Shown: piece by piece, positions 14,554-17,475 of the stretch | How positions within the stretch are numbered: the stretch's first letter is position 1 | Layout of the letters: every line of letters begins with the position of its first letter | NCBI GenBank assembly: GCA_900317575.1 | Contig: ONHH01000069.1 | Location: 1 to 37,478 of the forward strand | Direction: 5' to 3' | Source of the DNA: an uncultured Bacillota bacterium | GTDB taxonomy: Bacteria; Bacillota_I; Bacilli_A; ML615J-28; CAG-313 | DNA: 37,478 nt | Position numbers and translations under genes: made by a program | The notes under the pieces: generated by a model | What the model saw: the letters and a program-made list of their open reading frames with translations, nothing else | What the model was told of the DNA's origin: nothing | Database searches by the model: none

Positions 14554-16311
14554 TTAATGTATTAATATCTCTAATATATTTTTATTATTAACATAATTAT
14601 AATTATGACTTAAATTAATATTAGTTTCCACAAATGGATTATTCTTTTTACCTTTATCAATAAATGTAAGAATTAAATTATTCTTTGTTTTATTAAATTC
14701 GATTCTTAGATATATCTCTTTAGGATCATTATCATAATTGTTACTAATATTATTAATTATTTCTTTAATTAAAGATTTAATATTTAATGCTTGATCATTA
14801 ATAAAATCTTCTTTATTAAATGTATGATCAACAAAACTACTTATTTCATGTAAATCAGGCTTATTAAAGATTTTTTCATAATCATTAATAATATCACCTT
14901 CATAAGTAATACTCATTAAAGTAATATCATCGGACTGTTCAGCACCAAAGGTAAATTCCTTTAATTTATCTTTTAATTCATAATGGAATTTAATCATTGA
15001 TGAAAATTCTTGACTATTAGCAAGTTCTAGTAATCTTTCATCACCAAATAATTCATCATTTTTAGCTTTTGCTTCAGTAATACCATCTGTATATAAGGTA
15101 ATAGAATCACCACTTGCTAATTTAAATTCACCATTATCAAAATTTAATCCTTCTATTCCTCCAAGAACAAAACCAGAAGGACAATCTAAGAAGAAAGAAT
15201 GATTATTATTTCTAATTAGTGGTGGATTATGGGCAGCATTACTATATTTAACAATTCCTGTTGTTAAATCAATAATACCAATAAAAGCTGTAACAAACAT
15301 ACTTGCTTCATTATTCTTACATAATGCATTATTAATCTCTTCTAAAGTTTTACCAGGTTCTTTATTGATTGATACTAAATTTTCAAAGCAAGTAATAGTC
15401 TTCATCATAAACATTGCAGCTGGTATTCCTTTACCGGATACATCACCAATAATAAAAGCTACATGATTTTCATCTAATTTAAGATAATCATATAAATCAC
15501 CACCAACTTCTTTAGTTGGTTTTATTTCAGCTATTATTTCTAATTTCTTTGTTTTAATGAAATTATTAGGTAAAGCAGCAGATTGAATTTGTGCTGCATA
15601 TGATAATTCAATATTTATTCTTTCTTTATCTTTAGTAATATTAATTTCATCAGTTAATAATTTATGAGTACGAATATTTAATCCATTACATGCGACAAAG
15701 ATTACAGTTAAGAAGACTGCTCTTGATAAATAATAGAAAATAAATACTTTAAAGAATCGATTCTTTTCTACTGCAAGTTCTAATCTTTCTTTAAATCCAT
15801 CAGGTTGGAATAAATAAGGATCGCCATTACTATCAACCATTAATTTACCACTAGTTAATAGATTAGGATCATATTCACCAAGTAACATTCCTAAATAGAT
15901 ACATATTAACATACTAAATAATACTGACGCAAACACAATACGACATGTTTTAGGATTGTAGTAATGATTAGAAATAACGATTACTGCTGCCCATCCGATT
16001 ATCGCATGCTTTGGCACAATGATATTTAGAATACAGATAATTCCTAAAAAGGAATTAAGTAAGAAATATTTAAATTTAGGATTATATAAATGCTTAGTTC
16101 TAATCCAAAATGCTGATGATATAGAAATCAGAATATTAATGGGGAAGAAAATATTAACTAAAGTATAAGAATTAAGAGGAAATAATCCAATTAAATAGAA
16201 TACCCAAATGACTAACATCATAATACTTGATACAACAAGGATATTAATCATTTGTTTATTAGCTGCTATTTCATTATCATGAAGAATATTATTCTCAATT
16301 TCATTATTCAT
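14554..16311 (-). CDS. Membrane PP2C (SpoIIE/RsbU-type) Ser phosphatase with C-terminal truncated RsbW/SpoIIAB-like (HATPase_c_2) segment
   Basis: About 5-6 TM helices at the N-terminus. PP2C blocks EVGGDLYDY, GDVSGKGIPAAMFM, LYTDGITEA and QSDDITLM. The last ~125 aa align by eye to the first two-thirds of RsbW (N-box KEIINNISNN; LILTFIDKGKK at the G1 position) but end before a G2/ATP-lid. The ATG lies 3 nt after the upstream TAA. Confidence 0.8.
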   Translation of the reverse strand: MNNEIENNILHDNEIAANKQMINILVVSSIMMLVIWVFYLIGLFPLNSYTLVNIFFPINILISISSAFWIRTKHLYNPKFKYFLLNSFLGIICILNIIVPKHAIIGWAAVIVISNHYYNPKTCRIVFASVLFSMLICIYLGMLLGEYDPNLLTSGKLMVDSNGDPYLFQPDGFKERLELAVEKNRFFKVFIFYYLSRAVFLTVIFVACNGLNIRTHKLLTDEINITKDKERINIELSYAAQIQSAALPNNFIKTKKLEIIAEIKPTKEVGGDLYDYLKLDENHVAFIIGDVSGKGIPAAMFMMKTITCFENLVSINKEPGKTLEEINNALCKNNEASMFVTAFIGIIDLTTGIVKYSNAAHNPPLIRNNNHSFFLDCPSGFVLGGIEGLNFDNGEFKLASGDSITLYTDGITEAKAKNDELFGDERLLELANSQEFSSMIKFHYELKDKLKEFTFGAEQSDDITLMSITYEGDIINDYEKIFNKPDLHEISSFVDHTFNKEDFINDQALNIKSLIKEIINNISNNYDNDPKEIYLRIEFNKTKNNLILTFIDKGKKNNPFVETNINLSHNYNYVNNKNILEILIH

Positions 16312-16314
16312 AGG

Positions 16315-17475
16315 TTAGAGTCCTATATTTAAATCATCATATAATGGAAGTAATTTAAGTAATCTTTCCTTACAACCATTAAAACGAATAGTATTATTTG
16401 GTTCAAATGTCTTATTCCACCATAGCATATGAATATAGGAAACAATTCTAATCTTATTGAGAATATCTTCATTATATTCAGGTAGATAATATTTTAAGGT
16501 ATTGTAATATATATCAATTGATAACTTTTTAGGAATACCTAAGAATTTTTCTGAATTACCTTCCGCATCTTCTTCAAACACAATATAAGTTGCGTAAATA
16601 GCCGCAAGTTCAAAGATTGGATGTCCTCTAGATAAAGTATCCATATCAATAAGTAATAAATCATCTTTTTGGGATAAGATATTCTTAATATGACAATCTC
16701 CATGAATTAAAGTAATTCTTTCATCGATGCCTTCAATAAGTTTCTTCATCTTTAAATAATCATTATTATCAAGATATTCTTTAATAAATTCAATCTTATT
16801 TAGCCAACTAGCTTTAGTAGATGGAAGATTTTCATCATTTGATTCTGTAGTATTAATAATTTTTAATAGTTCTGCATATTTTTTAACTAATTCATCAAAT
16901 CGATCAGGATTATCTCTAAACAAATCACGAAGACTTGTTGCATCTAACATCTCAAATCTTACACCATATTTATCTTTTACCTTAACTACATCAAAAGATA
17001 TTGCGGTAGGAATACCTAAGATAAAAGCTTCTTTAGCTAATTTCAATTCTCTTTCAATATTTGGAATATTAGTTTCATTCTTAAAGACTTTAATAATAGT
17101 ATCATTACTAATACGATATACTGTCCCCGCAAATCCTTCACCAATGATATCACAACCATCAACACTAATTTCTTGTAAAGCTTTCTTTACTTCAAGAATA
17201 TTAGTAAATCCAGTCATCGATAAAATATCATATACTTCAAGATTAACATTAATTACTGATACATTATTGTAAAGCTTCTTTAATTTTAGGATAATTCTTA
17301 ATCCAGCACTTGAGATATATGTAACACTATTAAAATCAAGAATAAGTTTATTAAATTCATTTTTATGATTTAAAATAATATCATTGATTTTATTTTCTAC
17401 ATCTTCCGCATTACCAGAATTAATTTCTCCTACACATTTAATTGTAAGTACTTGTTCATTTAAAGTAAAATCCAT
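16315..17475 (-). CDS. STAS (anti-sigma antagonist-like) domain fused to an APH/choline-kinase-type protein-kinase-like domain
   Basis: The N-terminal ~100 aa read ...KLILDFNSVTYISSAGLRIILKL..., with Ser at the SpoIIAA/RsbV phospho-site position. The C-terminus carries GEGFAGTVYR...IIKVFK (G-loop/Lys), LIHGDCHIKN (HxDxxxxN) and LIDMDTLSRGHPIFELA (Mg-binding D). SD gaggtg upstream. Confidence 0.8.
   Translation of the reverse strand: MDFTLNEQVLTIKCVGEINSGNAEDVENKINDIILNHKNEFNKLILDFNSVTYISSAGLRIILKLKKLYNNVSVINVNLEVYDILSMTGFTNILEVKKALQEISVDGCDIIGEGFAGTVYRISNDTIIKVFKNETNIPNIERELKLAKEAFILGIPTAISFDVVKVKDKYGVRFEMLDATSLRDLFRDNPDRFDELVKKYAELLKIINTTESNDENLPSTKASWLNKIEFIKEYLDNNDYLKMKKLIEGIDERITLIHGDCHIKNILSQKDDLLLIDMDTLSRGHPIFELAAIYATYIVFEEDAEGNSEKFLGIPKKLSIDIYYNTLKYYLPEYNEDILNKIRIVSYIHMLWWNKTFEPNNTIRFNGCKERLLKLLPLYDDLNIGL

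Follow-up and report, generated by a model that had tools for sequence, protein, structure and literature searches.

The locus and its two genes

In textbooks, partner-switching modules regulate sigma factors, and a few are known that steer enzymes in trans. The locus considered here, from an uncultured Bacillota bacterium of the lineage CAG-313, appears to put such a switch to a different use. It lies in a window of 37,478 nucleotides, by which is meant the whole stretch of DNA analysed (contig ONHH01000069.1 of assembly GCA_900317575.1), and comprises two co-directional minus-strand genes. The first encodes a STAS domain fused to a kinase domain of the APH fold, and the second a membrane protein with a PP2C phosphatase domain followed by the remains of an RsbW-type kinase. 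We read the pair, with a probability of about two in three, as a partner-switching-type operon whose regulated output is the kinase fused to STAS and not a sigma factor.

Both open reading frames are found where an original prediction, made from the letters of the DNA alone, had placed them (17475-16315 and 16311-14554). That prediction took them to be the only minus-strand unit in the window, and this is borne out: the remaining minus-strand open reading frames of at least 100 amino acids, three in number, all nest within longer plus-strand ones, so that the gene 1-gene 2 pair is the sole credible unit on its strand. The features of the locus are collected in Table 1.

Table 1. Features of the two-gene unit and its borders (positions in the 37,478-nucleotide window)
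Feature	Position	Strand	Basis or detail
Gene 1, STAS-APH fusion protein, 386 amino acids	16315..17475	minus	
STAS domain, anti-sigma-antagonist type, residues 1-102	17170..17475	minus	Pfam, NCBIfam
Ser56 codon, equivalent of the SpoIIAA Ser58 / RsbV Ser56 phospho-site	17308..17310	minus	alignment to 1th8_B
APH-fold kinase domain, residues 107-386	16318..17157	minus	G112/G114, K129, E143, H258-x-D260...N265, D277
Gene junction	16312..16324	minus	AGGA 16324-16321, TAA 16317-16315, CCT spacer 16314-16312, gene 2 ATG 16311-16309
Gene 2, membrane sensor-PP2C-degenerate RsbW-like protein, 585 amino acids	14554..16311	minus	
N-terminal multi-transmembrane sensor region, residues 1-225	15637..16311	minus	hydropathy, AlphaFold2 secondary structure, invariant columns
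PP2C (SpoIIE-family) phosphatase domain, residues 251-470	14902..15561	minus	Pfam SpoIIE, invariant motifs
Degenerate RsbW/SpoIIAB-type (HATPase_c_2) remnant, residues 471-585	14557..14901	minus	alignment, Pfam, family profile
Divergent intergenic region, expected site of a putative promoter	17476..17619 (144 nucleotides)	minus	sequence reading
Bidirectional intrinsic terminator hairpin	14501..14537	both	perfect 16-bp stem, 5-nucleotide loop, A-run and U-run flanks

A STAS switch joined to an APH-fold kinase

The amino-terminal part of gene 1 is recognized by the Pfam STAS model (residues 6-102, 3e-13; 49.9 bits against a cut-off of 22.6) and, by a small margin, by the NCBIfam model for anti-sigma-factor antagonists, TIGR00377 (54.0 bits against 53.45), and the profile of the STAS-APH family matches SpoIIAA and RsbV structures at 1e-12. 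The serine which the original prediction had seen at the phospho-site of those proteins is indeed there, since Ser56 aligns with SpoIIAA Ser58 in a HMMER alignment to 1th8_B; a phosphorylatable residue stands at the start of helix alpha2, as in the STAS proteins of partner switches. The remainder of the protein scores above threshold with Pfam APH (PF01636; residues 111-305, 8.1e-10, 39.3 bits against a cut-off of 23.2) and carries the full catalytic constellation of G-loop, Lys, Glu, HxDxxxxN and Mg-binding Asp. All of the motifs LILDFNSVTYISSAGLRIIL, GEGFAGTVYR, IIKVFK, HGDCHIKN and IDMD were found, and the proposal of a STAS domain fused to an APH-like one stands with both models above their thresholds.

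The further description of the second domain as protein-kinase-like does not fare as well. The AlphaFold2 model of gene 1 is confident throughout, with a predicted local distance difference test score (pLDDT) of 92.5 and a predicted template modelling score of 0.79, and the 50 best Foldseek matches to its kinase domain are all small-molecule kinases. The best of them are APH(2'') and APH(3'), to structures of which the match probability is 1.00, choline/ethanolamine kinase, maltokinase and capreomycin phosphotransferase, at 12-17% identity only. The family profile likewise matches hygromycin, spectinomycin, choline, methylthioribose (MTR) and N-acetylhexosamine kinases, with protein kinases such as YihE marginal, and the match of gene 1 itself to the NCBIfam model of the protein kinase YihE/SrkA is weak (2.5e-5). 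By predicted fold and by profile the domain is closest to small-molecule kinases and not to protein kinases. Its nearest curated sequence family is TIGR02172 (residues 107-302, 93.7 bits, 1.5e-26), below whose cut-off of 228.2 it falls, leaving it outside the curated family; the NCBIfam APH(6)-I resistance model gives 11.4 bits against a cut-off of 325.

Is such a fusion more than an accident of assembly? With a word-indexed search, 6625 clusters come up at E<=1e-3, and the best 120 of them are all about 384 amino acids long with both STAS and APH present. When 1.84 billion representatives, clustered at 50% identity, were searched exhaustively with HMMER, 608 matched at E<=1e-30, and of the best 150 nearly all align in one stretch across both domains. 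The possibility of an assembly or frameshift artefact, which had been raised with the prediction, is ruled out by the occurrence of the same fusion in thousands of clusters and of an identical gene pair on 8 contigs. The STAS-APH fusion is real and conserved. Among 231 members Ser56 is kept in 228, G114 in 231, K129 in 231, D260 in 228, N265 in 230 and D277 in 230, and G112, E143 and H258 are likewise invariant or nearly so. Because these residues vary so little, strong constraint must act on the phospho-site and on the active site of the kinase alike.

Most members of the family come from Firmicutes of the gut and rumen, among them Bacilli known from metagenome-assembled genomes, Erysipelotrichaceae, Lachnospiraceae and Oscillospiraceae. 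Butyrivibrio sp. XPD2002 is a cultured member, and other phyla account for a small number of loci. In a scan of genome contigs the best match, 56% identical, was in a metagenome-assembled 'Bacilli bacterium'. Identical copies of the gene 1 protein itself occur on 8 contigs. Database labels for the family go no further than 'phosphotransferase', 'STAS domain-containing protein' or 'anti-sigma factor antagonist'. The original prediction knew of no characterized STAS-APH fusion, and a look at the literature for the architecture, or for TIGR02172, likewise yielded no description, one seeming match (PMC11109978) having proved unrelated.

A membrane phosphatase with a decayed switch kinase

That gene 2 is a multi-transmembrane PP2C protein with all of its blocks, as had been proposed, is well supported. 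Pfam SpoIIE matches residues 281-469 at 1.6e-48 and the metal-binding motifs GGD, GDVSGKG, TDGITE and DD are invariant in the family (GGD at 270-272, D290, D409-G410 and D461-D462), the aspartates expected of a partner-switch phosphatase all being intact. Ahead of the phosphatase, hydropathy places about 5-6 transmembrane segments within residues 19-213. The AlphaFold2 model (pLDDT 86.6) shows five transmembrane helices, a small extracytoplasmic hairpin, a linker helix at 185-246 running into the PP2C core, and beyond the core a compact beta-alpha-alpha-beta4 tail. The sensor region scores above threshold with no Pfam family, and a Pfam scan of the whole protein detects neither PAS nor Response_reg. 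Invariant in the family are PKH at 100-102, H116, Y118 and G145-E146-x-D148. Over residues 100-148 (about 15868-16014) the strictly conserved polar motifs PKH, NHYYNPK and GEYDPNLL match no described domain; they may constitute a ligand-binding or signalling site.

The tail of gene 2 had been aligned, in the original prediction, to the N-terminal two-thirds of RsbW/SpoIIAB and said to stop before the G2 box. The G2 box and ATP-lid are missing as claimed, but the protein does not simply end: an internal deletion of 22-25 alignment columns takes out the GGLGILIVK G2 box together with the lid, after which the last conserved strands (Y..N.KNI) resume. What is kept includes the N-box residues E517 and N521 and, in G1, D552 and G554. 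No Pfam model matches the window's tail even at E<=10, so the possibility that it is a complete HATPase_c_2 after all can be set aside, whereas orthologous tails match at 1.7e-20 and 4.4e-21 and the last ~130 residues of relatives form a full-length HATPase_c_2 (profile positions 1-127). The family profile matches RsbW (6m36) and SpoIIAB structures (1til, 1l0o, 1th8 and 1tid) over the tail region.

The judgement that the GHKL kinase is degenerate is right for this protein and wrong for its family. Of the 120 homologues that best match gene 2, 118 carry HATPase_c_2, and the two that do not are a partial sequence and the 99%-identical cluster to which the window's protein belongs; the N, G1 and G2 boxes of a partner-switch kinase are present in the family at large and incomplete in the window. 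When the identity of the window's protein to the family is divided by the family's own pairwise identity, the ratio is 0.96 for the transmembrane region, 0.86 for PP2C and 0.66 for the tail. The same protein, of 585 or 586 amino acids, occurs in several independent assemblies. Judged from these alignments, an RsbW-type kinase domain has genuinely decayed in one lineage, and the tail does not show the ancestral state of the family; the decay is apparently confined to the species-level cluster of the window. Most likely the RsbW-like domain survives here as a non-catalytic docking domain, a pseudokinase.

Partners in related genomes

The company kept by STAS-APH was surveyed in 80 species-level genome loci, neighbours being counted within four genes of it (L numbers below denote loci of this sample and P numbers individual proteins). 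The expectation that a PP2C(-HATPase_c_2) gene would prove a recurrent neighbour is borne out, with PP2C and/or an RsbW-like domain nearby in 42 of the 80. Taken separately, PP2C is nearby in 29 loci and an RsbW-like domain occurs, at any location, in 40; in 15 the latter is fused to the C-terminus of STAS-APH itself, with its N, G1 and G2 boxes intact, and P0280 has the order HATPase_c_2-STAS-APH. An extra stand-alone STAS gene is nearby in 24.

In flanking contexts otherwise unrelated, a gene for a transmembrane-PP2C-HATPase_c_2 protein trails STAS-APH on the same strand at +4 or −4 nucleotides (L001 and L004). The closest relatives of the window's STAS-APH (62-64% identical; L088 5196-7229 and L089 2922-4952) have a PP2C-HATPase_c_2 partner that is convergent, and it shares with gene 2 the PP2C and RsbW-like part only (32% identity), its N-terminal sensor being unrelated, which points to swapping of partners or of sensors. 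The partner stays adjacent despite the different sensor domain and strand. Inputs would thus be interchangeable, and tight coupling of the two genes in translation is not a trait of the family.

This bears on what had been made of the gene junction. The stop codon, three nucleotides and start codon are as described, and the spacer reads CCT, but gene 2 is not without a Shine-Dalgarno sequence of its own: a weak one, AGGA, lies 9 nucleotides upstream of its ATG, inside the end of gene 1. The proposed termination-reinitiation with fixed stoichiometry loses ground on this count, and as a family property translational coupling is ruled out by the convergent partners with their unrelated sensors.

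Neither the 37-kb window nor the list of top-25 neighbour families in the 80 genomes contains a sigma factor, in keeping with the earlier view that the output is not a linked sigma factor; nor does the window contain a further RsbW or RsbV gene. Could a classical switch with an unlinked sigma factor nevertheless be at work, the RsbW-like domain sequestering the sigma factor, STAS-APH serving as antagonist and the APH domain as a ligand-binding input? There is encouragement for this in HsbR, whose RsbW-like domain binds RpoS with no linked sigma gene (PMC6482189), in the existence of STAS proteins that carry a sensor domain at either terminus and in the score, however narrowly gained, of the STAS domain with the anti-sigma antagonist model. 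Mere ligand binding would not call for the strict conservation of every kinase catalytic residue, which speaks for catalysis. The RsbW-like domain is moreover tethered to the membrane or fused to STAS-APH, and in the window the module persists with that domain partly deleted. With sigma families also missing from the neighbourhood tallies, we regard the unlinked sigma factor as quite unlikely.

Four Clostridia operons (L066 1303-2262, L071, L074 and L077) encode, directly upstream of the PP2C-RsbW gene, a conserved protein of 319-321 amino acids with no Pfam or NCBIfam match, which may also belong to the module.

Phosphohydrolase neighbours and the question of substrate

Two other neighbours recur. 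Immediately upstream of STAS-APH in 18 of the 80 loci, mostly overlapping or abutting its start, is a gene for an HD_4 protein of ~190 amino acids (for example L035 5412-5987, L016 5409-5996, L066, L071 and L077). It matches the hydrolase domain of RelA/SpoT (TIGR00691 positions 1-122, 6e-24) and keeps the full set of hydrolase motifs, H..R, H..E, LHD..ED and DK..N.R, so resembling a small-alarmone hydrolase. A typical Clostridia operon has the order 5TMR_LYT-PP2C-RsbW (~945 amino acids), STAS (98 amino acids), HD_4, STAS-APH. The second is a PHP protein of ~300 amino acids in 10 of the 80 loci, mostly directly after STAS-APH-RsbW triple fusions (L050, L059, L062, L068, L043, L054 and L030 are examples), and among NCBIfam models it comes closest to those for 3',5'-nucleoside bisphosphate phosphatase, RNase RNM and a ribose cyclic-phosphate diesterase. 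In P0301 it is fused to STAS-APH. Long members of the family include, besides STAS-APH-PHP, the fusions HD-CE-STAS-APH, STAS-APH-PolyA_pol head domain and Na/H-exchanger-STAS-APH (rare architectures represented by P0335, P0276 and P0344, with a PolyA_pol head of CCA-adding/poly(A) polymerase type, HD-CE and Na/H-exchanger). Recurring less often as neighbours are Y_phosphatase3, PAP2, DUF218 and MatE.

The common denominator of the phosphate-handling partners would seem to be chemistry at the ribose 2'/3' positions of nucleotides or at RNA 3' ends. From fold and company together we infer that the kinase acts most likely on a small-molecule hydroxyl, and plausibly on a ribose 2'/3'-OH, whether in a nucleotide or at an RNA 3' end; the nucleotide or RNA-end version is suggested because the enzymes that recur beside STAS-APH or fused to it are of kinds that take such phosphates off or mend the ends that bear them. 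Toxic enzymes of RelA/SpoT type are known to pyrophosphorylate the tRNA 3'-CCA end or to make (pp)pApp (10.1101/2021.04.30.441581, PMC11782079). One may go further and picture STAS-APH as an unrecognized class of signal-gated kinase that phosphorylates a ribose 2'/3'-hydroxyl, with eraser enzymes reversing the modification and a membrane partner switch governing it. The product would then be a second messenger or a reversible block to translation; the erasers and repairers would be the HD_4 proteins resembling small-alarmone hydrolases, the PHP 3'-phosphatases, and the HD-CE or CCA-adding-type nucleotidyltransferase domains; and the window would hold a streamlined copy whose switch kinase has turned pseudokinase. 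In this full form the proposal is speculative and we hold it to be doubtful.

The same fold admits a more familiar employment, that of an antibiotic or xenobiotic kinase under post-translational control, the APH domain inactivating an aminoglycoside-like or other hydroxylated compound when the membrane PP2C switches it on. Aminoglycoside, capreomycin, hygromycin and spectinomycin kinases are after all its best structural matches, and a MatE efflux gene is within four genes in 6 of the 80 loci. Set against these, the identity to resistance kinases is low and the APH(6) score far beneath its cut-off, as given above; the spread through gut and rumen commensals is wide and vertical-looking, in the company of signalling partners; and phosphohydrolases of nucleotide type are not partners that resistance would lead one to expect. 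We consider a resistance kinase very improbable.

How the switch might work

On the preferred reading, that of a partner switch with the fused kinase as its output, a variable membrane sensor would control PP2C through the long linker helix that is seen in the model, by analogy with RsbU-type proteins. An RsbW-type (HATPase_c_2) kinase would phosphorylate Ser56 of STAS and PP2C would remove the phosphate, as homology, synteny and fusions suggest. The kinase would be delivered in any of three ways: fused to the PP2C protein, as a separate gene, or fused to STAS-APH. Phosphorylation of STAS by such a kinase would be the family rule, given that HATPase_c_2 is intact in 118 of those 120 gene 2 homologues. 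Depending on the phospho-state of STAS, STAS-APH would sit on the RsbW-like domain or be released from it, and this in turn would set how active the fused kinase is or where it is located; from its fold and neighbours that kinase would act on a small-molecule or nucleotide-like hydroxyl. The sequences themselves show which domains are present, which residues are conserved, the synteny, the fusions and the deletion; the direction of regulation, the docking and the class of substrate are what we infer. In the window copy Ser56 would be phosphorylated by another kinase, or regulation would be mainly by binding; candidates for the former are another kinase in the genome and the APH domain acting in cis.

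Several observations weigh against this account. At 38 of the 80 loci no PP2C or RsbW gene lies within four genes, it being understood that several of those contigs are short and that partners may be encoded elsewhere. In the window, PP2C and Ser56 are intact while the cognate kinase domain looks dead. As to substrate, neither the window nor L001 or L004 has an HD_4 or PHP neighbour, and what has been said of nucleotides is borrowed from distant members. Enzymes of the APH fold include a few protein kinases, and with the weak YihE/SrkA match a protein substrate is thus possible.

Much the same observations lend themselves to an idea already present in the original prediction, namely that the APH domain phosphorylates Ser56 of its own STAS domain, in cis or in trans within a dimer, with the membrane PP2C resetting the switch and the tail serving for docking only. 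Some kinase must supply the phosphatase with a substrate where the tail has lost G2 and ATP-lid and yet Ser56 and the PP2C motifs are kept; the loci with neither PP2C nor an RsbW-like domain nearby fit as well, as does the faint likeness of the APH domain to YihE/SrkA. It is not favoured here. Nearly all partners in the family retain an intact RsbW-type kinase, and if APH sufficed there would be no need for the intact RsbW-like domain that 15 of the 80 loci have fused to STAS-APH. The kinase domain groups by fold with small-molecule kinases, and the nucleotide phosphohydrolases, whether neighbours or fused, would be left unaccounted for. We therefore judge self-phosphorylation to be unlikely, and for the family return to an RsbW-type kinase acting on STAS.

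What would follow if the preferred reading is correct? A STAS switch joined to a predicted catalytically intact kinase, and spread among gut and rumen Firmicutes in diverged lineages that number in the hundreds, would be a new output class for partner switching, and Ser56, K129 and the PP2C and RsbW-like domains would offer a handle on a kinase activity common in the microbiome. Its repeated coupling to alarmone-hydrolase-like and 3'-phosphatase-like enzymes points to phosphorylation of nucleotides or RNA ends, which would be new signalling chemistry. The interest is mainly in the family; the window copy adds a natural pseudokinase variant, an experiment of nature in which the switch kinase has decayed while the remaining module is still constrained.

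Flanking signals and neighbouring genes

Gene 1 has a strong Shine-Dalgarno sequence, GAGGTG (17485-17480), 4 nucleotides ahead of its ATG. That the unit has its own promoter, as had been claimed, is suggested by the divergent intergenic region, in which a candidate extended −10 element, TGaTAAAAT, can be read at 17509-17501; a scan for consensus promoters gave no site at threshold upstream of gene 1 on the minus strand, and fewer sites than in shuffled sequences. The claim of a bidirectional terminator stands on firmer ground. The hairpin folds with a free energy of −15.2 kcal/mol (z −5.44), none of 200 shuffles folds equally well, and it is shared with a convergent PmbA/TldD gene ending at 14496, so that with its A-run and U-run flanks it would terminate in both directions. 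A consensus terminator scan demands three G-C pairs and so missed this AT-rich hairpin; its confirmation came from folding. An Rfam search of the leader and operon produced sub-threshold noise only, with no known RNA element. An anti-phage defence system was also entertained as an explanation and set aside, as PADLOC matched neither the gene 1 nor the gene 2 protein.

The divergent neighbour (17620-20664) encodes a protein of 1014 amino acids with a lipoprotein-like signal (LGSC) and a zinc-metalloprotease-like motif, HETGHALGLDDYY; a weak OB-fold is its sole Pfam detection. On the other side are tandem gene pairs of the PmbA/TldD family, at 6623-9299 (468 and 425 amino acids) and 11783-14496 (466 and 437 amino acids), with a glycoside hydrolase family 3 gene between them (9396-11726). 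Such a doubled TldD/PmbA protease pair is unusual. The window also has genes for a GGDEF diguanylate cyclase (1857-2939) and an HD_5, HD-GYP-like, protein (5229-6623), from which it can be taken that the host uses cyclic di-GMP signalling, with no evident tie to the module.

Comparison with known systems

With RsbU-RsbV-RsbW and SpoIIE-SpoIIAA-SpoIIAB of Bacillus the family has in common the STAS phospho-serine position, a SpoIIE-family PP2C, a HATPase_c_2 serine kinase and the linkage of the genes. It differs in having no linked sigma factor, in the fusion of STAS to an APH-fold kinase and in the presence of PP2C and RsbW-like domains on one membrane protein, and the window's RsbW-like domain differs further in being without G2 and ATP-lid.

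Rv1364c of Mycobacterium tuberculosis (PAS-PP2C-RsbW-STAS) is a regulator of sigma F with PAS input and its STAS domain in the same polypeptide. The original prediction had pointed to it, aptly, as its structure 3ke6 (Rv1364c RsbU and RsbW) is the top Foldseek match of gene 2, over 341 columns against ~250 for PP2C-only matches, and the gene 2 family profile also matches Rv1364c over positions 272-542. In both, PP2C is followed by the RsbW-like kinase. Unlike Rv1364c, the present system keeps STAS on a polypeptide of its own, joined there to the kinase, and has a multi-transmembrane input with no PAS detected.

In Pseudomonas HsbR and Vibrio SypE, as in the gene 2 family, PP2C and an RsbW-like kinase in one protein set the phosphorylation of STAS. 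SypE, which with SypA has biofilm as its output, is cytoplasmic and controlled by a receiver domain. SypA is the STAS protein paired with this serine kinase (PMC10120452). HsbR, also cytoplasmic and under receiver-domain control, is a fused PP2C and RsbW-like regulator that acts on a STAS protein, HsbA, which when phosphorylated binds the diguanylate cyclase HsbD (PMC6482189). Gene 2, by contrast, has a multi-transmembrane N-terminus and no Response_reg; and whereas HsbA and SypA are single-domain STAS proteins which act by binding others, here the effector enzyme is fused to STAS.

In SiaABCD of Pseudomonas a membrane PP2C (SiaA), a kinase (SiaB) and a STAS-like protein (SiaC) govern an enzyme that acts on nucleotides, the diguanylate cyclase SiaD (PMC7647112). 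NCBIfam SiaA is among the best matches to gene 2, and the SiaA structure 6k4e is matched also. SiaC, however, is a separate protein, phosphorylated on Thr68, and SiaD is a GGDEF cyclase regulated in trans and not a fused APH kinase. Enzyme outputs of partner switches have, at any rate, a precedent in HsbA-HsbD and SiaC-SiaD (PMC6482189, PMC7647112).

Kinases of the APH and choline-kinase type share with gene 1 the bilobal fold, the G-loop, Lys, Glu, HxDxxxxN and the Mg-binding Asp; for these families, as for TIGR02172, no description of an N-terminal STAS domain was found. The pairing of toxic small alarmone synthetases (toxSAS) with small-alarmone hydrolases offers a parallel to the translational coupling of STAS-APH with an HD_4 hydrolase resembling the latter kind in 18 of 80 loci, an analogy we draw with reserve: the fold here is that of APH and not of a RelA/SpoT synthetase, a partner switch takes the place of an antitoxin, and the window has no HD_4 gene. 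What sets the family apart from the known switches is the covalent fusion of STAS to an APH-fold kinase, with no linked sigma factor, modular inputs and the recurrent company of nucleotide-type phosphohydrolases.

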